This document shows, piece after piece, positions 14,948 through 59,883 of a stretch of 64,000 nt of DNA. The notes beneath the pieces are model-generated. The model was not told the DNA's origin. It searched no databases and saw only the letters and a program-made list of their open reading frames with translations. Source of the DNA: Escherichia coli (GTDB lineage Bacteria > Pseudomonadota > Gammaproteobacteria > Enterobacterales > Enterobacteriaceae); NCBI RefSeq assembly GCF_030013595.1, contig NZ_CP122768.1; one strand, written 5' to 3'. The position numbers were made by a program, and so were the translations under genes. How positions within the stretch are numbered: position 1 is the stretch's first letter; the number at the start of each line of letters is the position of its first letter.

Positions 14948-17900
14948 TCAGAACGACCAGTTCGCACCAGCCACCGCGTTCCACGGGGATTCCACACCGG
15001 CACCATGGCTATACCCCACCCCGAGATGCCCGCTTAACGAACTGCTGAATGAGGCTTTAATACCTGCCTGATATATTCCACGTCTGCCCGACAAATCATT
15101 GACAAAATTACCGTCATTATTCACTTTCACCCGGTTATCATCGACAAATTCTTTGCGCACAGCCGCCTTCAGCCACGGCTCAACTTCCATGCCGTTCCCC
15201 AGACGCATGTTGTAACTCAGCGTTGCGCCCAGTTCACGATATATACTGCGAGTATCGACTGATTTCGATTCCATACCATTGGATAAATGATATTCGGGGT
15301 TATCAGCGGTGAACCCCGTTAACGATGCATACGGCGTCAGGTTCCAGTTACCATCGGTAAATCGCATCCCGGTTTCAATGTGACCGCCCAGCCCGTTGCT
15401 GCGATAACTGCCGTTGGCGGCTCCACCGCTGCTCATTTTACCGGCTACGTTACTTTCAAAGCGGTTCAGCTTCACGATACCGTCCAGATAGAAACCACTT
15501 TCATGTTCCCAGCTGGCATAGCCCCCCAGAGAATAACTGCCCACACTGCCATGTCCTCCACGATCAAAACCGATATGTGAATGGGAATAACCCATAAAAG
15601 CGCCCAGCGTCGCAATCCCCTCAGGAATATCATTACGGCTGTCGATCCCCACTGTCATTCCGGTCAGCGTCTGCTCAAACCCAGCCCCCGCATCGGTGGT
15701 GACATTATTACGGGTGTTATACGTCGCCCCCCAGACATTATTGTTGTGTGGACTCGCTTTCATTATGTTCAACCGCTCGCGAATACTGTTTAGCTCAGCA
15801 TCAAAGACCAACGGTAATGTTGCTGCCATATTGAGTACGGCAGCCGTAGAAGGCGTGATGCGTTTCTCCGGAACGGGTGTCGGCGTTGGCTCGGGAGTCG
15901 GGTCTGGATTTGGATTTGGATTTGGATTTGGGTTCGGATTTGGATTTGGATTTGGATTTGGATTTGGATTTGGGTTTGGATTTGGATTTGGATTTGGATT
16001 TGGGTTCGGATTTGGGTTCGGATTTGGGTTCGGATTTGGGTTCGGGTTCGGGTTCGGATTTGGATTTGGGTTGACATTATTAGTCAGGTTCCAGTTGCTG
16101 TTGCCGTCGCTTTTCAGGACATACTCATAGGTCCCAAGATCAACGAAACCGCCGGTATTGCCCAGCGAAAACGACGCATCCCCTCCCCCTGTTTTCACCA
16201 GCGTCATCGCATCGTCAGACTGAGGGCTGACGCCGGTATCCTGAACAAAGATTTTAAAATTACCAGTGGCATTGTTGTTGACGACCAGTTGATCGCCCCG
16301 GGAGCCTGCAACGTTGGTATGCAGGTAGAAATTACCGCTGCCGGAAAGTTCACTGGTGGTCAGCGTATTGTAGATATCGTTAGTTGTGGCAGGCGCTGAT
16401 AAATAAACATCACCGTCGTTGAGTAGCAAACTGTTTACTCTATATTCGCAGTTGCTGGTGCCTGCACAGGAATTATTGCTGTTAAGCCAGACACTGCCCC
16501 GGCTGGCAGCCGTCAGGTCGGCAAGCGTCGTATCGACACCATTTCCCAGAGTTAATGTCGCGCTATCGGTAATCCGGACCGCCCCTTCAAGTTTTACTGG
16601 CGTAACATTATCCCGTGGCGTCATTAACGACAGGCTTCCTGTCGCGCCACTGACCGATGCATTCGCCAGCGTACCTGCGTAGACGATTGCCGTCCCACCA
16701 GAGACCTGTAGATCTTCTGCCCGGGCCAGAGCCTGAAACTCATCTTTTGACCGCCCAAGGGTATATTGCCCACCAGAGTTAACCTTTGTGGCGGAGTCCT
16801 GACCCAGGTTTTGCATTGCACCACCCTTGTCAACCGTGGAGTCACGGGCTTCGGTACCTGCTAATACCAATAAATTACCGCCATTTTCCAGCAACATATT
16901 GGTCGCTAAATTGCTGGCAATGGAAAAGGTGCCGTACTGGTGCGTACCGCTGATTTCAATACCGTTAGCCGTGCTCGTCTGGAGAGCGGCACCGCTGTTC
17001 TGGACGATATCTGTCGCTTTGCCATTATCGTTGACTGTCAGCGTTCCGCCTTCATTGATCGTTGTTTTTATTGCCTCTCCGTTAGCTGAAACTGTTTGTA
17101 TTCCGCCGTCGTTAATTGTTGTCTCATTTGCCACACCCTCGACGATTTGTTCACCGCCAGTGAGCGTCGTGCCTGTCGCAGTGGCTTTTGTTTTGACGAT
17201 CTCCCGACCGCCCGCATTGACCTGTGTTTTGGCGGAAGTGGTGTCTGACTCCACGGTTAACACGCCGCCATTTGTCAGCAGGATATTGTTCGCCGCACCC
17301 TGCTCGATGCTGAACGCGACGCCATCAGCGCGTGTCCCTGTGACCCGCGTCGCCCTGGTGGTTGCAACCAACGCGCCCTGACTACTCTGCTGTATCCCCG
17401 TTGCGCTGCCTTTCTCCCGCACATCGAGTATGCCGCCATTGTTAAGTCTGGTGGTATATGCTACAGCCTCCTCGTGGACAATCAGCTTACCGCCAGCATC
17501 AACGATGGTATCTACCGCCGAGGTTTGAGCTACGACCGTCAGTTGGCCGGTATTTTCCAGCACAACATGCTCAGCCCTGCCTCCGGTAATAGTGAAGTGA
17601 GATGACCTCTGGTATCCATCAATATCAGTCCCCGCGCCCGTGTTGGCAACTAAAGCACTCCCCGTGTCCAGGTAAACCCCATGTGCGATACCGCCGGTAT
17701 CGACAATCAGCGTGCCTCCGGCACGAATATTGCTGCCAGTTGCCGTACCTCCTTTCTCAACAACCTGCTTGCTCCCGGAAGAGATATTTGTTGTGTCAGC
17801 TTTCCCGCCGCTCTTGATATTTTGCGTGCCACTGTTGATATTAGTTCCCGTAGCAATACCATGATTATAAATATTCTGTGTACCACCATTAATGATGGTA

Positions 17901-18367
17901 TTTGTCGCGTTTCCGGCAACATCCATAAGCCCGCCATTATCTATTCGGGTCGCATCAGCTTTAGCATTCGTTAAAACTGACATTGTTCCTTTATCGTTAA
18001 TTATCGTTCCTGTAGAAATCCCTCCCTCACTAATTGTCTGGCTGCCACCGTTAATGACTGTATTATTAGCCTGCCCCTGATAAGAGCCATGTCCAGACAC
18101 CTCTTGATGTCCACCAGTATCAATAAGACTTCCATTAGACACCCCGCCATATACCTCCTGCTTGCCGTGATTGATGATATGAGCATTATTTGTTGTACCT
18201 CGTTCATCTACTCTTTGGCTGCCGTCTACAGTCTCATCATTTACAACACCAATAACATTAGAAGTGAAAGCCGTCATCCCGGGAGGGGCATATATCATGG
18301 CAGCTATCAATAAGGAAAGTACTGAGCGGTGAAAATAATAGCGACTGGTTCTGTTCATAAATTTCAT
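14948..18367 (-). CDS. AIDA-I-like (type Va) autotransporter adhesin, apparently intact; sits where K-12 is recalled to carry an autotransporter pseudogene
   Basis: ORF 14948..18487; likely start MKFMNRTSRYYFHRSVLSLLIAAMIYAPPGMTA (extended signal peptide); repetitive passenger, (PN)n linker, C-terminal beta-barrel ending ...AGANWSF. Confidence 0.82.
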   Translation of the reverse strand: MKFMNRTSRYYFHRSVLSLLIAAMIYAPPGMTAFTSNVIGVVNDETVDGSQRVDERGTTNNAHIINHGKQEVYGGVSNGSLIDTGGHQEVSGHGSYQGQANNTVINGGSQTISEGGISTGTIINDKGTMSVLTNAKADATRIDNGGLMDVAGNATNTIINGGTQNIYNHGIATGTNINSGTQNIKSGGKADTTNISSGSKQVVEKGGTATGSNIRAGGTLIVDTGGIAHGVYLDTGSALVANTGAGTDIDGYQRSSHFTITGGRAEHVVLENTGQLTVVAQTSAVDTIVDAGGKLIVHEEAVAYTTRLNNGGILDVREKGSATGIQQSSQGALVATTRATRVTGTRADGVAFSIEQGAANNILLTNGGVLTVESDTTSAKTQVNAGGREIVKTKATATGTTLTGGEQIVEGVANETTINDGGIQTVSANGEAIKTTINEGGTLTVNDNGKATDIVQNSGAALQTSTANGIEISGTHQYGTFSIASNLATNMLLENGGNLLVLAGTEARDSTVDKGGAMQNLGQDSATKVNSGGQYTLGRSKDEFQALARAEDLQVSGGTAIVYAGTLANASVSGATGSLSLMTPRDNVTPVKLEGAVRITDSATLTLGNGVDTTLADLTAASRGSVWLNSNNSCAGTSNCEYRVNSLLLNDGDVYLSAPATTNDIYNTLTTSELSGSGNFYLHTNVAGSRGDQLVVNNNATGNFKIFVQDTGVSPQSDDAMTLVKTGGGDASFSLGNTGGFVDLGTYEYVLKSDGNSNWNLTNNVNPNPNPNPNPNPNPNPNPNPNPNPNPNPNPNPNPNPNPNPNPNPNPNPNPNPNPNPDPTPEPTPTPVPEKRITPSTAAVLNMAATLPLVFDAELNSIRERLNIMKASPHNNNVWGATYNTRNNVTTDAGAGFEQTLTGMTVGIDSRNDIPEGIATLGAFMGYSHSHIGFDRGGHGSVGSYSLGGYASWEHESGFYLDGIVKLNRFESNVAGKMSSGGAANGSYRSNGLGGHIETGMRFTDGNWNLTPYASLTGFTADNPEYHLSNGMESKSVDTRSIYRELGATLSYNMRLGNGMEVEPWLKAAVRKEFVDDNRVKVNNDGNFVNDLSGRRGIYQAGIKASFSSSLSGHLGVGYSHGAGVESPWNAVAGANWSF
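15905..16070. repeat. Tandem hexanucleotide repeat (TGGATT/TGGGTT, about 27 units) encoding in-frame (Pro-Asn)n linker
   Basis: Direct reading: ggatttggatttggatttgg... across about 166 bp; minus-strand translation NPNPNPNP...PDPTPEPTPTP. Confidence 0.9.
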
Positions 18368-18963
18368 CCTCTGAAAAATGAATACTGAGTAGCGTCTAAG
18401 TGACCTAAGCTCTGCTGCAACATCAGCCCGCAGGCACCAGACCAGGGGATTCATCCTGAAGAGACAGCGCAGGTGTATTGTGTTCACCGCTCATCAAAGA
18501 CATCATGATGAAATGATGATATCCCGCATAAGAAAGAGGCACTTTTTAAACGCAGTGCGCTGAAGTGTAGTTGGATAAAAAATCACTCTTTTCTGATAAT
18601 ACTGTCGTACGCTTATTTTTCGACAATGAGGCCGTCGGCAAAATAAAATGACTAATGTAATCGTTGCTGATGAATATCTTCTGCTCACATAAAAATCACA
18701 CAATAATATTGATAAATCAGATTATCTTACCTTTACAACATTGTATTAACAGTCAATGACACTTCTTGAATAAAAATATTGTCAATCAATGAGTTATTTC
18801 TCATTTGAGATTATTCTCATTCCCGTAAAAAACATAATTCCTATCATCACAGTCACGCTCATTTTGAATTATCTGAATAATAGCGAGCGTTCTTTAGTTA
18901 AGCAGATCTTAATTGAAGACGAAATTATTGTGTGTGCAACTTACTTAATACCGGACATCTAAG

Positions 18964-19308
18964 TTGAAGAAAAAAATACTTGCCTTCGGGCTTATCTCAG
19001 CATTGTTCTGCTCCACGCCAGCGATGGCGGATATGAACCGCACCACGAAAGGTGCATTGCTAGGCGCAGGCGTTGGTTTACTTACTGGCAATGGTGTTAA
19101 TGGCATACTGAAAGGTGCAGCTGTTGGCGCTGGTGTTGGTGCAGTAACAGAAAAAGGCCGCGACGGTAAAAATGCGCGTAAAGGTGCAAAAGTGGGTGCC
19201 GCCGTTGGTGCTGTCACTGGCGTTCTGACCGGCAATGGCCTCGAAGGGGCGATTAAAGGTGCCGTGATTGGCGGTACGGGTGGTGCAATTCTGGGTAAAA
19301 TGAAATAA
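18964..19308 (+). CDS. ymgG: Glycine-rich protein YmgG (UPF0757)
   Basis: 114-aa ORF (TTG start) [44 protein letters not shown]... Confidence 0.8.
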
Positions 19309-19317
19309 GGAATGATG

Positions 19318-19647
19318 ATGAAAAAATTTGCTTTACTGGCAGGTCTGTTTGTTTTCGCACCAATGACCTGGGCGCAGGACTACAATATTAAAAACGGTTT
19401 GCCGTCAGAAACCTATATTACTTGCGCAGAAGCCAACGAAATGGCAAAAACTGACAGCGCACAGGTTGCAGAAATTGTTGCGGTAATGGGTAATGCCAGC
19501 GTTGCCAGCCGTGATTTAAAAATTGAGCAATCTCCGGAACTAAGCGCCAAAGTGGTAGAAAAACTGAATCAGGTTTGCGCTAAAGACCCGCAAATGCTGT
19601 TGATCACGGCAATTGATGACACTATGCGTGCTATCGGCAAAAAATAA
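19318..19647 (+). CDS. ymgD: Periplasmic protein YmgD
   Basis: MKKFALLAGLFVFAPMTWAQDYNIKNGLPSETYITCAEANEMAK..., 109 aa with signal peptide. Confidence 0.85.
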   Translation: MKKFALLAGLFVFAPMTWAQDYNIKNGLPSETYITCAEANEMAKTDSAQVAEIVAVMGNASVASRDLKIEQSPELSAKVVEKLNQVCAKDPQMLLITAIDDTMRAIGKK

Positions 19648-19702
19648 TATTTAATATGTTACCGCGTCGATGAATTCGACGCGGTATTTTAGCTAACGGG
19701 GA

Positions 19703-22351
19703 TCAGAACTTATATTTCAGGCCCACCATCATTGCGGTGTCATTGTAGCCATTATCACCCAGCTGCACGCCCACATTACCCCAGACGCTGGCCGCCGGAT
19801 TCAGATTGCCATTTACGCCAAGTTTAATTTCCCCCAGATTACGCGCCCCGTCTTGTTCAACTTTCACACCGTTCATTGAGACAGCAAAATCTTTACTGTT
19901 ATGGATCCAGTTCATTTCAACAAAAGGTTCAAAGTCGTCACCGTGCGGACCGCTGTTTTTCTCCTGAGTACGAATAAAGGTGCGGAAGCCGAGTCGGGTC
20001 TGGATGTTGTTATTTGCGTCATTCTCAATACGTGAGCCATTGGCTTCCGTGTGCGCATTATGATCGACGCCCATCCAGATAGCCTGTGCCTGTGGCTGGA
20101 AGATCCACGTATATTTCGCCGCTTCCAGACCAAAGGATTTATTCAGGGCAAAACCGTAACCCGCTTCCAGCGAGACGGTTGCACCTTTCGCGCTATAGGA
20201 TTCATAGGCTAACTCATCCCCTTTCACCGAGTTTTTAAACCAGCTATATTGCGCCCAGGCGTCAATGTATGCGCCTTTTTTACTGATGTCATCGGCAAAC
20301 CCGGTGGCATACAGCCCTGCGCTATAGCCTCTGACACTCCCTTTCGAACGATAATCCGACACGCTGGAATGAGTTGAGTTGTAGTCGCGGGCATAACCAG
20401 CCAACACTCCCAAACGCCAACTGTCACTGTCGGTAAAACCACCGGTTAACAGATCCGCCCCTAACTGCGAGACGTAGCGATGCGAGGTCGTTCTCAACTG
20501 TCCGTTGCTGTCACGCCAGGCATTATGCCCGCCAATTTGTCGTAGCCAAAGTCGGTTTGAACGCTCCTGTTCAGTTACAGGATCGATGTAGCGCGTTTCA
20601 CCTACACGATCGTTCAGACGCATAACAAAAAGAGTGTTAGCGGCTGCCAGGTTGGCGACGTAACTTCCAGCTTCGGGGCGCAGAACGGGAGTAGGCGCAA
20701 CAGTAGGCGCTGAACTTCCTCCGGAGTTTGTTTCACCGCCGCTCGTTGCCTGGAAGTTAGTTAGATACCAGTTTTTATTGGTCGCTTCGGTATTACCTCG
20801 GGTTAATGAATATTCGTAGGCACCGGCGAAAATCCTCGAATCCTTAATAAATTCCCCATTTGATTCCCCCTCAACGCTGATAATCTCTATCCCATTTAAC
20901 GTGTAAGCCCCGCTGCCTCCTGCATTGGTAACTTTAACTCGGGTTGTTCCGGAGGTATTTCCATTAATAACGACTTTATCCGTAGCTGAATTATCATCAC
21001 CCAATTCAGTTCTGAGATGCAATACGCCATTATTACCAACGTAATTTTCAGTTATTGTTAACCTTGTTGGTTCGAAATCCTTTCCATCTGCCCGGGAAAT
21101 ATAGACCGTACTATTGTCAACCGTGAGCTTGCTCACCGTTGAGTCAGCTTTAATATCCCAGGTACTATTATCTGAAAGCGACAGATAGGTATGAGTGCTA
21201 TCATCTGTTGAAAGATTGGCTGAACCCGTTATTTTTGAATTAGATGCATCGATGGACAAATGACCTTTAATATTATTGATAAAAACATCTGCAGCCGATG
21301 ATACCTCACTATCCGTAATGGTCACGTTACTCGTCTCATTTTTATTGTAGAGGATTTCATTTACTGACCGTAGTGAGCTACCAGATAAAATATCTACCGT
21401 TGCTTCCTGACCATTTATGGAAGACTCCAGCACAATTCCAGCCCCCTGATGCGCGACTGCAGATGTATTTTTCAGCGTCACCTTGCCGCCATTATAAATT
21501 TTAGCAATCGCGGCGTCAGGACCCGTTGTATGAATTTCTCCCTGGTTAAATGAAACTGTCCCCTGGCGAGCAGCGATGGCATGAGCATTGTCCCCATGCG
21601 TGGTAATATCAACATCGGTTAATGTAACGCTGGCATTGGTATAATCAAGCTTGTCATCAGCCTTGACGACAGTGCCATTAGCGTACGCGGCATAACTTTC
21701 TGTTCCGTGGGTTGTTATCTCCCCTTTTGCCATATCCAGTTTTGCTATGGCGTTATTTTCATTACTTCCTGTATCGGCAGTACTTTCTTCATCAAGAGAA
21801 GATACACACGCACGCGCGCTTCCGGGAGATGCACACGCAAGAACGCCGACTGCGTGATTACCCGCAGTAACAATAAAAGTATTATTTCCGTCAGAAAAAG
21901 AGGGGGTAACCGAACCGTCAGAGTTGACTCTTATTATGGTATCAGTATTCAGGTTTCCATCAACTTGACTTAACAAACCAACAGAATAATCTCCCGTCGT
22001 GACAATCGTATTATTACCCCGCAAAGTGACAGCACCGCCATATTCACTTACGACTGCGCTAGCTGTATATACTTTGCTTAGAGGACTATTGTCAGAAGGA
22101 TATAAACCGCCCGTTGTTACAATGACGCCATTGTTAATGGTTAAATTGCTACCCTCTCCTGCAACAGATACACCGTAACTTCCATTACCCGTTGTTATAA
22201 CTAGCGCATTATCAATATCTTTTACTTCTCTATCTTTTATTGCCACAGCATGTTTATGTTCCTCGTGCTGAATAAACTGATCAGCATATGCATTACCCAC
22301 CGCCAAAGCAATAAGTCCTAAACTAAACCCGGGGAGTTTTTTCAGTTTCAT
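19703..22351 (-). CDS. Autotransporter adhesin, apparently intact; sits at the ymgF/ymgD position where K-12 is recalled to carry the ycgH pseudogene
   Basis: 882-aa ORF, ATG 22351, signal peptide MKLKKLPGFSLGLIALAVGNAYA, C-terminal beta-barrel ending ...MMVGLKYKF. Confidence 0.82.
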   Translation of the reverse strand: MKLKKLPGFSLGLIALAVGNAYADQFIQHEEHKHAVAIKDREVKDIDNALVITTGNGSYGVSVAGEGSNLTINNGVIVTTGGLYPSDNSPLSKVYTASAVVSEYGGAVTLRGNNTIVTTGDYSVGLLSQVDGNLNTDTIIRVNSDGSVTPSFSDGNNTFIVTAGNHAVGVLACASPGSARACVSSLDEESTADTGSNENNAIAKLDMAKGEITTHGTESYAAYANGTVVKADDKLDYTNASVTLTDVDITTHGDNAHAIAARQGTVSFNQGEIHTTGPDAAIAKIYNGGKVTLKNTSAVAHQGAGIVLESSINGQEATVDILSGSSLRSVNEILYNKNETSNVTITDSEVSSAADVFINNIKGHLSIDASNSKITGSANLSTDDSTHTYLSLSDNSTWDIKADSTVSKLTVDNSTVYISRADGKDFEPTRLTITENYVGNNGVLHLRTELGDDNSATDKVVINGNTSGTTRVKVTNAGGSGAYTLNGIEIISVEGESNGEFIKDSRIFAGAYEYSLTRGNTEATNKNWYLTNFQATSGGETNSGGSSAPTVAPTPVLRPEAGSYVANLAAANTLFVMRLNDRVGETRYIDPVTEQERSNRLWLRQIGGHNAWRDSNGQLRTTSHRYVSQLGADLLTGGFTDSDSWRLGVLAGYARDYNSTHSSVSDYRSKGSVRGYSAGLYATGFADDISKKGAYIDAWAQYSWFKNSVKGDELAYESYSAKGATVSLEAGYGFALNKSFGLEAAKYTWIFQPQAQAIWMGVDHNAHTEANGSRIENDANNNIQTRLGFRTFIRTQEKNSGPHGDDFEPFVEMNWIHNSKDFAVSMNGVKVEQDGARNLGEIKLGVNGNLNPAASVWGNVGVQLGDNGYNDTAMMVGLKYKF

Positions 22352-31767: not shown

Positions 31768-32883
31768 CTATGCGCCTGGATTGGGTTCGATCATACTCAG
31801 CGTTTTTGCTATTTTCTTAATCTCATCATCATTATCCAAAAAAGAGGCGTCTTTTATTACCACAGTACGCTCTTCTTGTAATAGCTCACCTATTTTTTCT
31901 TCTATAAAATCTAAGGTTGGCATTATAATCTGGATGTCTCGAGAAAAAGTAGTTTTTGCATCTTCTATACTGTTGAATCCATTATGTATATGAGTGAATA
32001 TTCTCTTTTTAAACTGTATGTCTTCTGGATTTCCCACTAACTGACTGAAATCTCCTTTCATAACTCTTTCGCTTGTTTCAAAGAGCTGTATTGCTATCGA
32101 GTCGATTAATTCCTTTTTGGACAGAGATGCTTGTTCATAAAATTTGGTGACTAACTCTGTTGGTAACTTTCTTGAGACGACTTTAATGGACAGTCTCTGA
32201 AATAGGTAAGGTGCCACCACGCCCACACTGAAAGGGTGAATCCTCCCTGGATTTAATAATTTTATTGTGACGTTTTCAAAAACTAGCTCATTGATTTTAC
32301 TATTTATGAATTCCATTAAATACTTATCTAATGATAATGTTACCGACGCAACCGCTTCTATCACTTGTTTAAATGGCTCGCCTTTCAAGGATTTAAAAAA
32401 CTCTTTGTTATAACCAAAGAAATCCACAAAACCTAAATTTATTCGATTTTCTTCTTTAGTATTTGAAATGCGAATTTGAAGTTGTTTTAAGTCTTCATCG
32501 GTCAAGTATTTTAAACCATAGTCATCAAGCGCGTTACGTATAACTTTATCTGCAGATTCTAAGTCGATTACAGTTTTTACATTAAAAAACAATGATAACA
32601 ATGAATCATACTTATGAACTCGCAAGGTTAAATCTGTTGCATTTGATGCGGTTACATTTATACGTCTCAAAAGATCAATAACTTTACTAATTGGTAGGCT
32701 GTTTTCAAAAATTTTGAATGACTCGTATTCAGATACAACATCTTTTATATACTTACTGATAGTATGAGACTTTATTTCCACCTCAACTTCGGTTGAGTAA
32801 GAATGAATTAGTGAGTTTGTAGTTTCAGCGATGTCATTTGATACATACAACTTATATTCGAAACAATCAGGAGCGGGAAGCAA
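31768..32883 (-). CDS. Continuation reading frame of the Mrr-like gene (about 370 codons, unknown function); no independent start, probably joined by a frameshift
   Basis: Open for 371 codons in AT-rich DNA but first in-frame ATG is about 190 codons in; no SD before the TTG at 32883; overlaps upstream ORF by 76 nt in a different frame. Confidence 0.5.
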   Translation of the reverse strand: MLPAPDCFEYKLYVSNDIAETTNSLIHSYSTEVEVEIKSHTISKYIKDVVSEYESFKIFENSLPISKVIDLLRRINVTASNATDLTLRVHKYDSLLSLFFNVKTVIDLESADKVIRNALDDYGLKYLTDEDLKQLQIRISNTKEENRINLGFVDFFGYNKEFFKSLKGEPFKQVIEAVASVTLSLDKYLMEFINSKINELVFENVTIKLLNPGRIHPFSVGVVAPYLFQRLSIKVVSRKLPTELVTKFYEQASLSKKELIDSIAIQLFETSERVMKGDFSQLVGNPEDIQFKKRIFTHIHNGFNSIEDAKTTFSRDIQIIMPTLDFIEEKIGELLQEERTVVIKDASFLDNDDEIKKIAKTLSMIEPNPGA

Positions 32884-34376: not shown

Positions 34377-35246
<870 letters not shown>

Positions 35247-38079: not shown

Positions 38080-38664
38080 TTACTCCGGATATTTAAAAAT
38101 CACATAGGTATGCGACGGGCAGAGTTTGTTAAGAACACACTCGACAACGGTGTCCCCCCAGAAGCGCAGCGCGGAATCACAGGGATCGCCACATGTCATC
38201 CAGGTGGTGTTGGTGGCGGCTGGCATGTTGACCTGCCAGTAATACCGCCATTCAGGCGCATTCACCGCGTCAGTACAGGCCGATGAGCAGGTGAACGTGC
38301 TTTTGTCGTATCGCGTGATGTTGGCATCCAGTCTGCCCAGGGCAGCAAGCTGTGCAAGATAAAAATTCTCGTTGATGCCGCCCGCCAGGTTAACCTTCGC
38401 ATCCAGCCGTTGCTGACGCTGGCGAAGGGTCTGTGTCCCTGTAGGAATACATTCATCCGGCAGGCCGCACAGACGCTCCCAGCGATTTATCAGTTCGGTG
38501 GTGGTGCGCGGATCCAGCTCCCGCATCAGGGCATCCGCACGCTGATGAACGCGGGTTAATGACGGTGCCGCACCGGCAATCGCCGGATCGCTGGCTGACC
38601 ACGCCGGACCGGGCGGCAACAGTGCTGACAACAGACGGATGTAATCATCGTTTGTCACGTCCAT
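38080..38664 (-). CDS. Tail/baseplate protein (Mu gp48-like)
   Basis: 194-aa ORF between baseplate J gene and tail fibre gene; gene order matches Mu tail module. Confidence 0.6.
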
Positions 38665-39713
38665 GAAATCGCCCCCAGAACCGCCAGTTCATTTTTTGCA
38701 ATGGTGATATTGTCCGCCGGTGCAAGCAACTGATGGCTGTATTCCCCGTTCGCACCGGAAATCGCTTCACTGATACGTGACACCTTCAGTTCTCCCTGCG
38801 GATAACCATCACGCAGCAGGAACGAACGCAACTCCGCGGTGATGGCAGCCCGTATTTCCGGTGTGTCCGGCGTAACACGGATATGAAAATCCACCGTATG
38901 TGCCACCGGCCTGAACACATACAAATCAGAGCCTGCCACCGGGGCCAGTGGCCCGATATGTTGTCTTGCCGCCGTTTCCGTTGATTCTTCCGGAATGGGA
39001 TTAATCAGGTCACTGCTGGCAATCATCACACCGACAGTCCCCGTTCCCATCCAGTGTCGGTATGTCCATGCGCGGGTAATGCCAGGCACTTCTTTAGCCC
39101 AGACGACATAGTCCCCGTCAGCCCCGCCCTGCGGCGTCCAGTAATACCGCTCAATGACGCGGGCGCGCCACGTTTCCAGCTCTTCAGTATCAAATCCGCC
39201 TGTCAGGGTGTCAGCCACACCGGAAGACGGCAGACCATTCACCGGCGTGACCAGGATTAATGCCGTACCGTCGTCAGCGTTACCGACCGCACCTGCACTT
39301 GAGCAGGCGATCGGCACGCGCAGGACACCACCGGAGCTGATTGCATCGTCAGTTGTCGTGTACTGCACCAGGTCATCGCGCTGAATAACACTCCCGGCAG
39401 TCACCTTCAGGCCATCGCTGACACCTTCCCAGCGCATATACCCGCTGGCAACCGTGGCTCCCTTGCGCGGACACCGTTTCATCGCAGCATGTCGCGCCAA
39501 CCAGGACTCATCGCACAGGTCAGGCAGCATATTCATTGCCAGATAATCGATGTAACCGTAGACCGTATGCAGCGCCGCCGCATACACCTTTGCCCGCACG
39601 TCTTCATCCATGCGCCGGAGCGTGTCGCTGACGTCCAGCCTGGCGAATAAATCGTTACGGAGCATACTGATATTTTCTGCCAGCGTCGGGCGCTGAAATT
39701 CACTGTCCGCCAT
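38655..39713 (-). CDS. Baseplate J-like protein (Mu gp47-like)
   Basis: 352-aa ORF; size and position in Mu-like order. Confidence 0.65.
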
Positions 39714-53322: not shown

Positions 53323-55056
53323 TTAAAGCGAGCGGATCCCATAGGACTCAATGTGGTCAGACAACGTGTCTTCTTTCTCGTACAGCATGGCTCTGCCAAC
53401 CGCCATAATCAGCGCAACTGCACCATCGATTTTGTTTTCCGCCTGCTCTTTGACGGGCTTCACCACATCATCGTTACCCGGAATGGTTTTGCCGACCACG
53501 TTGCCGATACACCAGGTCATGATGGGATTGCCATCATGATGAAAGCGCCCCGATTCAATTGCCGCTTCCAGCTCTTTCATCGGGTCGGACATGTTGGTGT
53601 AGTTCTGAATGATAGTGATGGGGTTCAGGTCTTCATCAGCCAGGTCATGTGACAGCCCGGTCGCCCCGAAGGGGTCGATGGGTGACTCACTGACCGGGCT
53701 GATTTTGTTCGCCGCTTTGGCCTCCTCGAGGATGTAGCGATAATCCACCTCCGCACCATCGGTAACGGTCAGAACGCCCATTACCACCCATTTCTGAAAG
53801 CGTTCGGCTGTCCGTCGATCTTCATTTTTCTCGACACTGTACACCGTGTCATACGGTACCCAGAAACGCGGGGCCACACTGTAGTAATGCGTTTTACCGT
53901 CAATCTCGCGGGTATAAAGTCGCGCCATGCTGTTCATATCCAGCTTACGCGCCAGGTCAAAGGCCAGAATGCACGGCTGCCCCTCGAACTGCTCAAGGGT
54001 CAGTGATTTATCCTCGCAGCTCTGCCAGCTCACCAGGTTGAAATACGCCGAACGCGCCGACACCCAGATATTGAGGTGCTTTGTTTTAAAGACGTTTGCC
54101 AGACGGGCGTTATTTTTCGCACGCTGCTGCTGACTTAACAAAAATTCGCGATAAACCGACACGCCAATATTCGGGTTAGCTTTTTCCAGCACCTGCGGGT
54201 CGGTCCAGTCATCGCCTTCGTCAACGGTATAGATGATCCCGAACAGTTCATCGTTGGGTACCGACCCGTTGAGCATCTCGATAACTTCCCGCCGCTTGTC
54301 GTAGCACGGCCCCTCAATGTTGTACCCGGCAGTAGTAATGGCCCACATCAGTGGCTGACGTCGCGCCCCCATCCCGGTAAGCATCGTGGTGTAAAGCGCA
54401 TCGGTGGCGTGCTCGTGATATTCATCCACCACCGCACAGTGGGGTGATGATCCATCACCGGGGTTACCGATCAGCGGTTCAAACCGCGCGCCATCCTCCG
54501 GACGGTTCATGTTTGAGGCGTTAACCTCAATCCCGAACGCTTCCGTCAGCATGGGCGTGCGTTTACACATCAGTCGCGCCGGGCGAAAGACTTCCCACGC
54601 CTGTTTCTCTGTCGTGGCACCGGAATACACTTCCGCGCCAAACTCGTTATCACAGGCAAAACAATACAGGGCAACACCGGCAGAGATTGCTGATTTGCCG
54701 TTCTTACGGGGGATTTCGGTATACACCTCCCGGAAGCGGCGCAACCGGGTGCCTTTATTGACCCAGCCAAACGCACAGCAGATCACAAAGAGCTGCCACG
54801 GCTCCAGCGTGATGGGCATCCTCTTGAATGCCCACTCACCCTTGGTGTGCGGCAACAGCTGAATAAATTTGGCGGCCCGTTCAGCCAGGTCCTTGTCGAA
54901 GCGGTAACGAAACGACTTACTTTTTTCCGCCATCAGGTCATCAAGATGGCGCTGGCAGGCCTGAATCACAAACTGGCAGGCCACAATCTTTCCGCGAACG
55001 ACATCCCGGGCATACTGATTGGCAGCATTTACGTTGGGGTAAGATTTCCGGCTCAT
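53323..55056 (-). CDS. Terminase large subunit
   Basis: 577-aa ORF with Walker A-like IPRKNGKS and Walker B-like VVDEYHEH, C-terminal nuclease region. Confidence 0.85.
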
Positions 55057-56246: not shown

Positions 56247-57575
56247 CTGATGAATCCCCTAATGATTTTGGTAAAAATCATTAAGTTAAGGTGGATACAC
56301 ATCTTGTCATATGATCAAATGGTTTCGCGAAAAATCAATAATCAGACAACAAGATGTGCGAACTCGATATTTTACACGACTCTCTTTACCAATTCTGCCC
56401 CGAATTACACTTAAAACGACTCAACAGCTTAACGTTGGCTTGCCACGCATTACTTGACTGTAAAACTCTCACTCTTACCGAACTTGGCCGTAACCTGCCA
56501 ACCAAAGCGAGAACAAAACATAACATCAAACGAATCGACCGATTGTTAGGTAATCGTCACCTCCACAAAGAGCGACTCGCTGTATACCGTTGGCATGCTA
56601 GCTTTATCTGTTCGGGCAATACGATGCCCATTGTACTTGTTGACTGGTCTGATATTCGTGAGCAAAAACGACTTATGGTATTGCGAGCTTCAGTCGCACT
56701 ACACGGTCGTTCTGTTACTCTTTATGAGAAAGCGTTCCCGCTTTCAGAGCAATGTTCAAAGAAAGCTCATGACCAATTTCTAGCCGACCTTGCGAGCATT
56801 CTACCGAGTAACACCACACCGCTCATTGTCAGTGATGCTGGCTTTAAAGTGCCATGGTATAAATCCGTTGAGAAGCTGGGTTGGTACTGGTTAAGTCGAG
56901 TAAGAGGAAAAGTACAATATGCAGACCTAGGAGCGGAAAACTGGAAACCTATCAGCAACTTACATGATATGTCATCTAGTCACTCAAAGACTTTAGGCTA
57001 TAAGAGGCTGACTAAAAGCAATCCAATCTCATGCCAAATTCTATTGTATAAATCTCGCTCTAAAGGCCGAAAAAATCAGCGCTCGACACGGACTCATTGT
57101 CACCACCCGTCACCTAAAATCTACTCAGCGTCGGCAAAGGAGCCATGGGTTCTAGCAACTAACTTACCTGTTGAAATTCGAACACCCAAACAACTTGTTA
57201 ATATCTATTCGAAGCGAATGCAGATTGAAGAAACCTTCCGAGACTTGAAAAGTCCTGCCTACGGACTAGGCCTACGCCATAGCCGAACGAGCAGCTCAGA
57301 GCGTTTTGATATCATGCTGCTAATCGCCCTGATGCTTCAACTAACATGTTGGCTTGCGGGCGTTCATGCTCAGAAACAAGGTTGGGACAAGCACTTCCAG
57401 GCTAACACAGTCAGAAATCGAAACGTACTCTCAACAGTTCGCTTAGGCATGGAAGTTTTGCGGCATTCTGGCTACACAATAACAAGGGAAGACTTACTCG
57501 TGGCTGCAACCCTACTAGCTCAAAATTTATTCACACATGGTTACGCTTTGGGGAAATTATGAGGGGATCTCTCAG
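56247..57575 (+). mobile_element. IS10 (1329 bp, complete), no flanking 9-bp target duplication
   Basis: Outside end CTGATGAATCCCCTAATGATTTTGGTAAAAATCATTAAG at 56247, inside end ...TTATGAGGGGATCTCTCAG at 57575; flanks ggttcaaca / tattaagcg differ. Confidence 0.9.
56354..57562 (+). CDS. IS10 transposase
   Basis: 402-aa ORF MCELDILHDSLYQFCPELHLKRLNSLTLACHALLDCKTLTLTELGRNLPTKARTKHNIKRIDRLLGNRHLHKE... recognised as IS10 Tnp. Confidence 0.92.
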   Translation: MCELDILHDSLYQFCPELHLKRLNSLTLACHALLDCKTLTLTELGRNLPTKARTKHNIKRIDRLLGNRHLHKERLAVYRWHASFICSGNTMPIVLVDWSDIREQKRLMVLRASVALHGRSVTLYEKAFPLSEQCSKKAHDQFLADLASILPSNTTPLIVSDAGFKVPWYKSVEKLGWYWLSRVRGKVQYADLGAENWKPISNLHDMSSSHSKTLGYKRLTKSNPISCQILLYKSRSKGRKNQRSTRTHCHHPSPKIYSASAKEPWVLATNLPVEIRTPKQLVNIYSKRMQIEETFRDLKSPAYGLGLRHSRTSSSERFDIMLLIALMLQLTCWLAGVHAQKQGWDKHFQANTVRNRNVLSTVRLGMEVLRHSGYTITREDLLVAATLLAQNLFTHGYALGKL

Positions 57576-57604: not shown

Positions 57605-58519
57605 ATGAAAGGCAGGCGCTCAGACATTACGGTGACAGAATGGCTTGATAAATATATTTCTATCCAGGAGGACAGGCTGCAACATAATGAACTAAGACCC
57701 AACTCCTATCGGCAAAAAGGCAAACCCATTCGTCTTTTCCGTGAGCATTGTGGAATGCAACACCTCAAGGATATTACCGCACTTGATATTGCCGAAATAA
57801 TTGATGCTGTAAAGGCTGAAGGTCATAACAGGATGGCGCAAGTCGTGAGAATGGTGTTGATCGACGTCTTCAAAGAAGCACAACACGCAGGACATGTTCC
57901 GCCAGGATTTAACCCAGCGCAGGCAACAAAACAACCGCGAAATCGAGTAAACCGCCAAAGATTGTCACTGCCCGAATGGCAGGCAATATTTGAAAGCGTA
58001 AGCAGACGGCAGCCCTATTTAAAATGCGGCATGCTACTTGCTCTTGTTACTGGACAACGTTTAGGCGATATCTGCAATTTGAAATTCTCTGATATATGGG
58101 ACGACATGTTGCACATTACTCAGGAAAAAACCGGTTCAAAACTTGCTATTCCGCTTAACCTGAAATGCGATGCTCTGAATATTACCCTTCGTGAAGTTAT
58201 ATCTCAGTGCAGGGATGCTGTTGTTAGTAAATATCTGGTCCATTACCGTCACACTACCTCTCAAGCAAACAGAGGAGACCAGGTTTCTGCAAATACTCTG
58301 ACAACGGCTTTTAAAAAGGCCCGGGAAAAATGTGGCATAAAATGGGAGCAAGGAACTGCGCCCACATTTCATGAGCAGCGATCTCTGTCAGAACGGTTAT
58401 ATCGGGAACAGGGTCTGGATACGCAAAAGTTGTTAGGCCATAAATCCAGAAAAATGACCGACCGATACAATGATGATCGTGGTAAAGACTGGATTATCGT
58501 AGATATCAAAACAGCATAG
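57605..58519 (+). CDS. Phage tyrosine integrase (lambda Int-like), apparently lacking the N-terminal arm-binding domain
   Basis: 304-aa ORF; ...LLALVTGQRLGDICNLKFSDI...GTAPTFHEQRSLSERLYREQ...LLGHKSRKMTDRYNDD (R...HxxR...Y catalytic signature); aligns to lambda Int from about residue 60 onward. Confidence 0.8.
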   Translation: MKGRRSDITVTEWLDKYISIQEDRLQHNELRPNSYRQKGKPIRLFREHCGMQHLKDITALDIAEIIDAVKAEGHNRMAQVVRMVLIDVFKEAQHAGHVPPGFNPAQATKQPRNRVNRQRLSLPEWQAIFESVSRRQPYLKCGMLLALVTGQRLGDICNLKFSDIWDDMLHITQEKTGSKLAIPLNLKCDALNITLREVISQCRDAVVSKYLVHYRHTTSQANRGDQVSANTLTTAFKKAREKCGIKWEQGTAPTFHEQRSLSERLYREQGLDTQKLLGHKSRKMTDRYNDDRGKDWIIVDIKTA

Positions 58520-58632: not shown

Positions 58633-59883
58633 TTACATGTTCTTGATGATTGCATCACCAAACTCGCTGCATTTCAGCAGTTTAGCACCTTCCATCAGAC
58701 GTTCGAAGTCATAGGTTACGGTCTTGGCGTTGATTGCGCCTTCCATACCTTTAACAATCAAGTCTGCGGCTTCAGTCCAGCCCATATGGCGCAGCATCAT
58801 CTCAGCGGAGAGAATAATAGAGCCTGGGTTTACTTTGTCCTGACCGGCATATTTCGGCGCAGTACCGTGGGTGGCTTCAAACAGGGCGCATTCGTCACCG
58901 ATGTTTGCGCCTGGGGCGATACCGATACCGCCGACCTGTGCAGCCAGAGCGTCAGAAATGTAGTCACCGTTCAGGTTCATACAGGCGATAACATCATATT
59001 CAGCCGGACGCAGCAGGATCTGTTGCAGGAATGCGTCAGCAATCACGTCTTTAATGACGATCTCTTTGCCGGTATTCGGGTTTTTAACTTTCAGCCACGG
59101 GCCGCCGTCGATCAGTTCACCGCCAAACTCTTCACGCGCCAGCTGGTAGCCCCAGTCTTTAAACGCGCCTTCGGTGAACTTCATGATGTTGCCTTTGTGC
59201 ACCAGGGTCACAGAGTCACGATCGTTAGCAATTGCGTATTCGATCGCTGCACGAACCAGACGTTTGGTGCCTTCTTCCGAACACGGCTTAATACCGATAC
59301 CGCAATGTTCCGGGAAGCGAATTTTCTTCACGCCCATCTCTTCACGCAGGAATTTAATCACTTTCTCGGCGTCGGCAGAGTCAGCTTTCCATTCGATACC
59401 CGCATAAATGTCTTCCGAGTTTTCACGGAAGATAACCATATCGGTCAGTTCAGGGTGTTTAACCGGGCTTGGAGTGCCCTGATAGTAACGTACCGGACGC
59501 AGGCAGATGTAGAGATCCAGTTCCTGACGCAGGGCAACGTTCAGAGAGCGAATACCGCCACCAACCGGAGTGGTCAGCGGACCTTTAATGGCAACGCGAT
59601 ATTCACGAATCAGATCAAGGGTTTCAGCAGGCAGCCAGACATCCTGACCATAAACCTGTGTGGATTTTTCACCGGTGTAAATTTCCATCCAGGAGATTTT
59701 ACGCTCGCCTTTATAGGCTTTCTCGACTGCAGCGTCGACCACTTTCAGCATGGCTGGGGTTACATCTACACCGATTCCATCACCTTCAATGTAAGGGATA
59801 ATCGGATTTTCAGGAACGTTGAGTTTGCCGTTTTGCAGGGTGATCTTCTTGCCTTGTGCCGGAACAACTACTTTACTTTCCAT
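58633..59883 (-). CDS. icd: Isocitrate dehydrogenase (NADP), 3' end supplied by prophage
   Basis: 416-aa [76 protein letters not shown]... Confidence 0.95.

Follow-up and report, generated by a model that had tools for sequence, protein, structure and literature searches.

Do some strains of Escherichia coli keep in working order the two autotransporter genes that are disrupted in K-12 on either side of ymgG and ymgD? The question is raised by a 64,000-nucleotide stretch of E. coli DNA (RefSeq assembly GCF_030013595.1, contig NZ_CP122768.1; 'the window'), in which two long open reading frames, both on the minus strand, flank these genes: gene A in the minE–ymgJ locus, and gene B in the ycgH locus. 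A first-pass annotation read both as uninterrupted from signal peptide to aromatic-terminal beta-barrel, took K-12 to be disrupted at both positions, and proposed that this strain retains functional adhesins or biofilm factors. Our answer, given with considerable confidence if not with certainty, is that genes A and B are intact classical autotransporters (type Va, AIDA-I-type), and that working versions of both are absent from K-12. The difference between strains is real, but of an ordinary kind. Public genome annotation already has names for the two genes, and the finding is known at the level of the catalogue.

The two reading frames

The mechanically called ORF A (14948..18487, minus strand) begins with GTG and runs for 1179 aa without an internal stop; the gene B ORF (19703..22351, minus strand) begins with ATG and runs, likewise unbroken, for 882 aa. 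The chance that random sequence would remain free of stops is (61/64)^1136, or ∼2e-24, for gene A and (61/64)^882, or ∼4e-19, for gene B. In SC418, a genome nearly identical to this one, PGAP annotates each as an intact CDS, and both are annotated as intact in seven independently sequenced genomes, SC418 among them. Among 5426 complete genomes, the two are full-length together in 95, of which ∼70% are annotated as intact for both.

Uninterrupted reading frames are thus confirmed for both genes, but the length of 1179 aa is not. The first 43 codons of the mechanical ORF (VNTIHLRCLF...; 18359..18487, minus strand) have no signal-peptide character and are probably untranslated leader, outside the gene A protein. 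AGAGGA lies 8–9 nt ahead of the ATG at 18358, at Shine–Dalgarno distance; the PGAP start matches this ATG in seven intact orthologues, that of SC418 included; and a signal peptide begins here, at M44 of the mechanical ORF. Together, these identify ATG 18358 as the true start, making gene A (14948..18358, minus strand) a gene of 1136 aa.

Architecture and surroundings of gene A

Read from the translation, the signal peptide of gene A (aa 1–30; 18269..18358, minus strand) is MNRTSRYYFHRSVLSLLIAAMIYAPPGMTA, followed by FTS, with a basic n-region, a hydrophobic core, and small residues at –3 and –1. Pfam finds six AIDA repeats (PF16168), a Pertactin region and an Autotransporter beta-domain, and there are seven repeats of the heptosylation-target type (TIGR04415). 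The pertactin-like, or autochaperone, region occupies aa 641–759 (16082..16438, minus strand; PF03212, E=1.1e-45). The beta-domain (aa ∼875–1136; 14951..15736, minus strand; PF03797, E=6.1e-46; TIGR01414) ends in ..ANWSF and matches, in a search of PDB sequences, the beta-domains of BrkA and Vag8; that search also matched gene A to the AidA-I family adhesin, TibA and Ag43 (1e-27 to 1e-30). Signal peptide, PF03797 translocator, AIDA/Pertactin passenger and aromatic C-terminus are marks of type Va, and gene A displays each of them.

A proline-rich (NP)n linker (15869..16072, minus strand) is encoded by a hexanucleotide repeat of 27.5 copies (TRF array 15905–16069, period 6). It varies in length among strains from 34 to 68 aa, and gene A lengths run from 1108 to 1140 aa in 2-aa steps. 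A protein-homologue search with gene A returned mostly fragments and passed over the entries for YpjA and for full-length gene A, a failure that probably reflects the weight of the (NP)n tract in the word index; we left this search out of our counts.

Upstream of gene A and co-directional with it lie a 39-aa ORF (18423..18542, minus strand), conserved in the same position relative to ypjA and to the orthologue in E. albertii, and ymgJ (18503..18688, minus strand), which falls inside the block homologous to the ypjA upstream region. The small envelope proteins ymgI, ymgG and ymgD (18789..19647, plus strand; ymgG 18964–19308, ymgD 19312–19647), recognized by annotation and by Pfam (Gly-zipper_YMGG, YmgD), are divergent from gene A and convergent with gene B. 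Where ymgD and gene B converge, a consensus scan picked out, between their stops, a terminator-like, GC-rich hairpin with an 11-bp stem (19660..19686). The promoter and terminator scans yielded consensus matches alone, among them spurious 'terminators' inside the NP repeat, and we draw no regulatory evidence from them. The regions upstream of the genes are AT-rich (GC 0.33–0.39). A one-base indel separates SC418 from the window.

Loss of gene A in K-12 and other E. coli

At the minE-proximal site, K-12 MG1655 has a 344-bp autotransporter remnant, the pseudogene 'ycgI', annotated as 'frameshifted; incomplete; missing N-terminus'. Comparison of the window with K-12 by blastn, and of junction sequences, accounts for it: K-12 has lost 3095 bp (window 15293–18387), with no more than 1 bp of microhomology at the junction. 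The deletion takes the start codon of gene A, 29 bp upstream, and all of the gene except its last 345 bp. What remains shares locus and orientation with gene A and is 95–98% identical to these last 345 bp, but it has no start codon, no passenger and little of the barrel, and is frameshifted besides. The same segment is absent from 83% of complete E. coli genomes, and gene A is lost in at least this share of them. Because the K-12 junction is common to 4522 of the 5426, we regard it as one old deletion allele, now dominant in the species.

Full-length gene A is found in 422 of these 5426 genomes (∼8%). Substitution rates point to purifying selection on such intact copies: gene A has a dN/dS of 0.09–0.16 when compared with three intact orthologues that have diverged from it, at dS values reaching 0.14. 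Among close relatives of this strain some copies are broken, by a stop in O17_K12a, by IS insertions in H176 and H177, and by a frameshift in the closest relative, HCP5S3_I2, where the gene is one base shorter and annotated as 'frameshifted'.

Gene A and the YpjA/EhaD lineage

PGAP names gene A ypjA, and the resemblance to YpjA/EhaD (b2647 in K-12; EhaD in EHEC) is close. Both have AIDA repeats, pertactin region and barrel, and K-12 ypjA and gene A are collinear, including a ∼385-bp upstream leader (homology reaches 18742). Against K-12 ypjA the collinear DNA is 87–95% identical; by segment, identity ranges from 83 to 95%, standing at 93–95% in the 3′ 2.5 kb and 83–87% in the 5′ 1.3 kb. The beta-domains are 95% identical in aa sequence and the N-terminal 110 aa 74.5%; the best single tblastn alignment gives ∼72%. 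Gene A is 390 aa shorter than YpjA, however, and is without two of its passenger blocks (∼217 and ∼199 codons), whereas its (NP)n linker is the longer, at 68 aa versus 38 aa. The loci differ as well: gene A has minE and ymgJ on its two sides, while ypjA adjoins ssrA (ssrA-ypjA-ypjCB-ileY). Gene A and ypjA proper occur together in one chromosome, and 'paralogue of YpjA/EhaD' is the description that suits gene A best.

We considered, and rejected, the idea that ypjA is part of the CP4-57 prophage island. In K-12 it is distal to CP4-57-type genes, but in O17_K12a it lies directly beside ssrA, with no prophage; ypjA is a chromosomal neighbour of the CP4-57 integration site, instead. The idea that gene conversion has linked gene A with ypjA was rejected also, since identity within genomes equals that between genomes.

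In E. albertii, the same minE/ymgI slot holds a 1475-aa AIDA-repeat autotransporter that is an outgroup to gene A and YpjA alike. Because an autotransporter is found there too, we place gene A in the slot that is ancestral for the YpjA/EhaD lineage. For gene A, then, the strain can properly be said to 'retain' what K-12 has lost; for gene B it cannot, because the passenger is an allele other than that of K-12 ycgH.

Gene B and the ycgH slot

The exact protein of gene B appears in NCBI and UniRef as 'ECIAI39_1904 family autotransporter adhesin', on 38 contigs; its cluster relatives are 94–98% identical, and intact ECIAI39_1904 protein is present on hundreds of contigs. E. coli IAI39, the source of the type, carries in this same ymgD–ymgF locus a CDS of 882 aa that shows no substantial difference from gene B. 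No NCBIfam HMM named ECIAI39_1904 scored on gene B in our NCBIfam search, and the name appears to have been given via another PGAP rule. ECIAI39_1904 is among the autotransporter genes screened from VFDB (PMC5654935); the searchable literature holds no published function for the family.

Gene B opens with a textbook signal peptide by reading of the translation, MKLKKLPGFSLGLIALAVGNAYA followed by DQF (aa 1–23; 22283..22351, minus strand), and Pfam finds AC_1/Pertactin and Autotransporter beta-domain matches (PF03797, E=9e-39). In its AlphaFold (AF2) model (pLDDT 84.5), residues 34–531 are all-beta, 559–573 form a helix, and 600–881 form a barrel. The passenger (aa ∼24–545; 20717..22282, minus strand) is predicted to be a pertactin-like beta-helix; the model has structural matches to pertactin and IcsA, and the AC_1 autochaperone (aa 404–516; 20804–21142, minus strand) lies within it. 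Linker helix (aa 559–573) and barrel (aa 600–882) together span 19706..20677 (minus strand) and end in ..LKYKF, and the barrel superposes on the AIDA-I transport unit, 4MEE (Foldseek TM 0.94, rmsd 2.0; phmmer E=2.7e-81). Here, too, the type Va marks are present: signal peptide, PF03797 barrel with its helix, beta passenger with autochaperone, and aromatic C-terminus. The domain annotation suggested at first pass has therefore returned a full autotransporter architecture for each gene.

K-12 ycgH is annotated as 'frameshifted; internal stop', and alignment places the stop near codon 507 and the frameshift near codon 858. K-12 is thus indeed disrupted at both positions, as the first-pass annotation supposed, by deletion in 'ycgI' and by stop and frameshift in ycgH; when the window is aligned with these pseudogenes, the lesions map in K-12 and the window ORFs stay open. 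Even so, gene B is not an unbroken K-12 ycgH. YcgH, which has an intact 887-aa form in other strains such as KY 1497, shares with gene B its locus, Pfam architecture, signal peptide (100% identical) and beta-domain (98%). The passengers (aa ∼24–545), in contrast, are 44% identical in aa sequence, with sharp boundaries. Over window 22285–20720 DNA identity falls to 45–65%, and dS exceeds 2, which is to say that synonymous sites are saturated. Only 66 relatives of the gene B passenger were found at E<=1e-3 among 1.84e9 representatives. Judged by this divergence, the passenger is a different, old cassette, and we read the ycgH slot as one in which three or more such cassettes are exchangeable while signal peptide and barrel are conserved.

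Gene B is, from its substitutions, only weakly constrained overall. Its dN/dS is 0.26–0.45, with ∼1.3 in the passenger on few changes and ∼0.15–0.17 in the barrel and autochaperone. It has been inactivated independently in K-12, W/KO11FL, HCM-24C-3, O145 RM8988, XJ5.2 and PS_131_S11, and from this repetition we take gene B to be dispensable; it may be drifting. A sigma-S ChIP peak within K-12 ycgH is intragenic (PMC4447067).

What the proteins might do

If these proteins behave as their architecture suggests, a Sec signal peptide would direct each to the periplasm, where the C-terminal 12-stranded barrel would insert in the outer membrane and the passenger would thread out, C-terminus first. 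Export would be driven as the pertactin-like autochaperone folds and the beta-helix grows upon it, and the beta-helix would remain at the surface as an adhesin. That both are functional adhesins or biofilm factors, as proposed at first pass, we infer from their intactness, domains and dN/dS and from the biofilm phenotype reported for YpjA/EhaD; their secretion, surface display, adhesion or biofilm function, and conditions of expression are deductions of the same kind.

For gene A we can be somewhat more specific. It alone of the two resembles the self-associating proteins AIDA-I, Ag43 and TibA in having AIDA-type beta-helix repeats of ∼19 aa, and its paralogues YpjA/EhaD are associated with biofilm formation (PMC9289746, PMC12547504). 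By analogy with these AIDA/Ag43-type repeats and this paralogy, gene A, if expressed, most likely promotes biofilm and the adhesion of cells to one another or to surfaces. No NCBIfam equivalog score comes near its cut-off, and gene A does not reach equivalog level for auto_Ag43 (186 bits versus a cut-off of 1200) or auto_AIDA-I (160 versus 1200). By gene order, no heptosyltransferase of the aah/tibC type adjoins gene A; its neighbours are minE, the 39-aa ORF, ymgJ and ymgI. In the laboratory, autotransporter adhesins of K-12 such as YpjA are silent, and the AT-rich upstream regions seen here are compatible with silencing.

Alternative explanations

Open reading frames need not be useful ones, and the two genes could be cryptic or decaying, intact merely for want of a lesion yet and contributing nothing to fitness. 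We consider this doubtful, but it is the alternative we take most seriously. Gene B has been broken again and again, its passenger has a dN/dS of ∼1.3, most genomes, that of the closest relative among them, have gene A missing or disrupted, and the upstream regions are AT-rich. The dN/dS of gene A is not neutral, however; nor do the values for the barrel and autochaperone of gene B, or the hundreds of contigs with an intact ECIAI39_1904 protein, sit well with simple decay.

It is a good deal less probable that gene A arose recently, when a copy of ypjA entered the min locus by recombination and re-created a full-length gene there. The PGAP name, the high identity of the 3′ 2.5 kb and the homologous leader would all be explained in this way, but not the lower identity of the 5′ 1.3 kb, the two missing ypjA blocks, or the occupied slot in E. 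albertii. K-12-type remnants, moreover, are the 3′ end of this same gene, still in place, and the equality of within- and between-genome identities carries no sign of recent conversion. Least probable of all, to the point where we give it scarcely any weight, is that intactness is an artefact of sequencing or assembly. The hexanucleotide array is error-prone, and the nearest genome is one base shorter and 'frameshifted' in gene A; against this stand the seven independently sequenced genomes in which both genes are intact, and the recurrence of the exact gene B protein on 38 contigs.

A wider reading

Returning to the reading of gene A as ancestral and of both genes as intact, we offer tentatively, as a possibility rather than an expectation, the following picture. 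Within the YpjA/EhaD lineage the min-locus gene would be ancestral, and E. coli would have kept it as a long-lived presence/absence polymorphism: 83% of genomes, from different phylogroups, have a single old deletion allele of 3.1 kb, and ∼8% a full-length allele under purifying selection. In the ycgH slot, passenger cassettes would be exchanged whole while signal peptide and barrel stay fixed. The two loci might together form a small hot spot of surface-antigen variation in the BluRF/YcgZ-YmgAB biofilm-control neighbourhood, shaped by the benefit of adhesion on the one hand and its cost in exposure to immunity and phage on the other. If this is so, adhesin typing that calls 'ypjA' by BLAST lumps two loci together.

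The name 'ypjA', as PGAP applies it, can denote either of two paralogous loci, and, with 83–95% DNA identity between them, the same probably holds for adhesin-typing tools. The practical value of all this is modest; no new kind of system is revealed, and no long-standing question is opened. The comparison does explain what the K-12 pseudogenes ycgI and ycgH originally were, and natural strains (∼1% of complete genomes) offer both min-region autotransporters intact for study.

Two intact autotransporter genes

Two long open reading frames on the minus strand, separated from each other by ymgJ, ymgI, ymgG and ymgD, are flanked by minCDE at one end and by ymgF and pdeG at the opposite end. Gene A, next to minE, runs from 14948 to 18487 (1179 aa, GTG start), and gene B, at the ycgH locus, from 19703 to 22351 (882 aa, ATG start). 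Both are open over exactly the coordinates of the first-pass annotation, and by simple arithmetic the chance of frames this long is ~1e-19 to 1e-24. Domain annotation with Pfam gives a complete autotransporter architecture in each—six AIDA-repeat stretches, a Pertactin region and an Autotransporter beta-domain in gene A; an AC_1/Pertactin autochaperone and a beta-domain in gene B—and NCBIfam supports the domain assignment (TIGR01414), with no named equivalog at cut-off for either. The parts shown are the signal peptides, the beta-helical passengers with their autochaperone, a linker helix, the barrel and an aromatic residue at the C-terminus.

The length of 1179 aa, however, applies to gene A as a mechanical frame and not as a protein. 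Signal-peptide character is absent from its first 43 codons; the ATG at 18358 follows AGAGGA at the proper distance, opens a typical signal peptide (MNRTSRYYFHRSVLSLLIAAMIYAPPGMTA|FTS), and is the PGAP start in every intact orthologue inspected. Because all three point to this ATG, the gene A protein is 1136 aa. Strains differ in this length by multiples of 2 aa, between 1108 and 1140 aa, owing to copy-number change in the hexanucleotide array (15905–16069, 27.5 copies) of its (NP)n linker. Linker composition differs in ypjA and in E. albertii. The repeat also skewed a word-indexed protein search and, separately, gave spurious terminator-like matches.

Loss in K-12 and in the population

The first-pass annotation placed pseudogenes at both positions in K-12, correctly, and alignment locates the lesions. 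Near minE, MG1655 keeps 344 bp of an autotransporter gene, under the annotation 'frameshifted; incomplete; missing N-terminus': a clean deletion, corresponding to window 15293–18387 and with junction microhomology of at most 1 bp, has taken the start codon of gene A together with the 29 bp before it, and leaves only the last 345 bp of the gene. K-12 ycgH, annotated 'frameshifted; internal stop', is interrupted in frame by a stop near codon 507 and changes frame near codon 858. The deletion spares the segment 18423–18742, in which ymgJ and a 39-aa ORF lie upstream of gene A and in its orientation. Both ORFs belong to a block with a second copy upstream of ypjA, and the part around the 39-aa ORF is conserved ahead of the E. 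albertii orthologue too; this segment could serve the autotransporter lineage as a leader or as a regulatory element.

Counted with a 6-kb query whose flanks shut out matches at the ypjA locus, full-length gene A occupies the min locus in 422 of 5426 complete E. coli genomes (7.8%). An 81-bp probe across the junction that the deletion left in K-12 finds an unbroken match in 4522 (83%), and a ypjA-specific block is present in 2756 (51%). The K-12-type loss is one deletion allele, found in K-12, W, O145, UTI89 and IAI39, which belong to different phylogroups. Where gene A survives it is clearly under purifying selection: dN/dS between intact orthologues is 0.09–0.16, at dS 0.09–0.14.

Gene B is under weaker selection. 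Its dN/dS is 0.26–0.45 overall, ~0.15–0.17 in barrel and autochaperone, and ~1.3 in the passenger within the family, on few substitutions. Window-type gene B DNA reaches a coverage of 80% or more in 1783 genomes, many of them broken in differing ways—a stop in HCM-24C-3, a frameshift and a stop in O145 RM8988, a deletion in XJ5.2, a stop in PS_131_S11, and two pieces (69 and 773 aa) in E. coli W/KO11FL—and the largest protein cluster is the 773-aa form. Presence and absence of the two genes occur in all four combinations. A joint query, built to fall below 80% coverage if gene A is deleted or if the passenger is of the YcgH type, finds both in 95 genomes (1.75%). Both are annotated intact in seven of ten of these inspected; the others have a gene A stop, a gene A frameshift and a gene B stop, and two further listed genomes carry IS elements in gene A. 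The both-intact state belongs to a minority of about 1% of complete genomes but is not unique.

Gene A as a retention, gene B as a different cassette

Gene A is collinear with K-12 ypjA (EhaD), an AIDA-I-type adhesin gene, over a stretch that begins ~385 bp before its start codon and ends 10 bp beyond its stop codon, with DNA identity of 83–87% over the 5' 1.3 kb and 93–95% over the 3' 2.5 kb; two in-frame blocks of the ypjA passenger (~217 and ~199 codons) are missing from gene A, and its (NP)n linker is the longer one. Hence the PGAP symbol 'ypjA', seen on the min-locus gene in the annotated genomes inspected, so that genomes with both loci hold two genes of that name; BLAST-based adhesin typing would not separate them at 83–95% identity. 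Gene A is nevertheless a separate locus. The proper ypjA adjoins ssrA in O17_K12a, in the order smpB-ssrA-ypjA-ypjCB-ileY when no element is integrated (K-12 has CP4-57-type genes on the ssrA-facing side), and both genes occur together, ~1.68 Mb apart, in O17_K12a and in NZ_OZ392441.1. Identity between the two is the same within one genome as between genomes, and so gives no sign of recent gene conversion. The ypjA alleles of O17_K12a and K-12 are only 94% identical in DNA, and ypjA is annotated as frameshifted in MG1655 assembly NZ_CP025268, probably an assembly or strain variant.

In E. albertii the same slot, ymgI to minE, holds a 1475-aa AIDA-repeat autotransporter whose beta-domain is 78–79% identical to those of gene A and YpjA, which are 95% identical to each other. 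These identities make it an outgroup to both; the ancestral position of the YpjA/EhaD lineage is therefore the min locus, where gene A has been retained. Sequence comparison matches the passenger of gene A to solved passengers of the AidA-I family, TibA and Ag43 (E 1e-27 to 1e-30), and the C-terminus of gene A to the barrels of BrkA and Vag8.

That this strain 'retains' what K-12 has lost therefore stands for gene A but not for gene B. Against an intact K-12-type YcgH (887 aa, strain KY 1497), gene B has 96–100% DNA identity in promoter region, signal peptide and beta-domain, whereas the whole passenger (window ~22285–20720, aa ~24–545) is 45–65% identical in DNA and 44% in protein, with synonymous sites saturated. 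Gene B thus joins an old passenger cassette of another kind to a secretion chassis common to both alleles; it is not an unbroken K-12 ycgH. A third cassette (880 aa) sits at the ycgH slot of another Escherichia lineage, 91% identical in minCDE, in which gene A, ymgI and ymgJ are all absent; in E. albertii the slot, ymgD to ymgF, is empty of any gene.

For the N-terminal passenger of gene B, a search of 1.84 billion cluster representatives gives only 66 relatives at E ≤ 1e-3. An AlphaFold model from 27 sequences is confident (pLDDT 84.5, pTM 0.77), with an all-beta passenger (34–531) aligning with pertactin and with the autochaperone of IcsA, a linker helix (559–573), and a barrel (600–881) that superposes on the AIDA-I transport unit 4MEE (TM 0.94, rmsd 2.0 Å) and matches it in sequence. 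The exact 882-aa protein is in NCBI and UniRef (38 contigs) as 'ECIAI39_1904 family autotransporter adhesin', with a sibling sequence in 904 contigs; IAI39 has an 882-aa gene of this family at the same locus. The name appears in one paper, for a gene in its VFDB-based screen of autotransporters that is present in ST38, ST405 and ST648 and absent from ST131 (PMC5654935); we found no functional study.

Function and expression

If both proteins follow the well-established type Va pathway, they would be exported by Sec, their barrels inserted with BAM assistance, and their passengers moved out C-to-N, driven by autochaperone folding, and displayed on the surface. Gene A likely promotes aggregation or biofilm, as reported for its relative YpjA/EhaD (PMC9289746, PMC12547504). 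Gene B is, from its relatives, a putative adhesin. The regions upstream of both are AT-rich (GC 0.33–0.39), compatible with silencing, to which K-12 autotransporters are subject; a promoter scan gave consensus matches only. A sigma-S RNA polymerase ChIP-seq peak is reported to lie inside the K-12 ycgH pseudogene (K-12 coordinates 1219400–1219949; PMC4447067).

The first-pass observation, of two full-length genes, is borne out, and its conditional reading, of functional adhesin or biofilm factors kept where K-12 is broken, is supported with these refinements. Both genes are already catalogued and named, and their joint integrity is ordinary E. coli accessory-allele variation; what is gained is evolutionary detail—an ancestral slot for YpjA/EhaD, one deletion allele found in most genomes, and the exchange of passenger cassettes at ycgH.

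Other features of the window

A myovirus-like prophage (35300–58520) abuts icd (58633–59883), the region of e14 in K-12. It includes baseplate J (38655–39713), tail sheath (46360–47856), major capsid (50040–51245) and large terminase (53323–55056), with an IS transposase (56354–57562) and a tyrosine integrase (57605–58519). Between iraM and the prophage, the segment 31768–35246 encodes a 371-aa ORF with no Pfam match (31768–32883, minus strand) and one with a LEM-3-like GIY-YIG nuclease domain (34422–35246, plus strand); its ORFs could be accessory or defence cargo.
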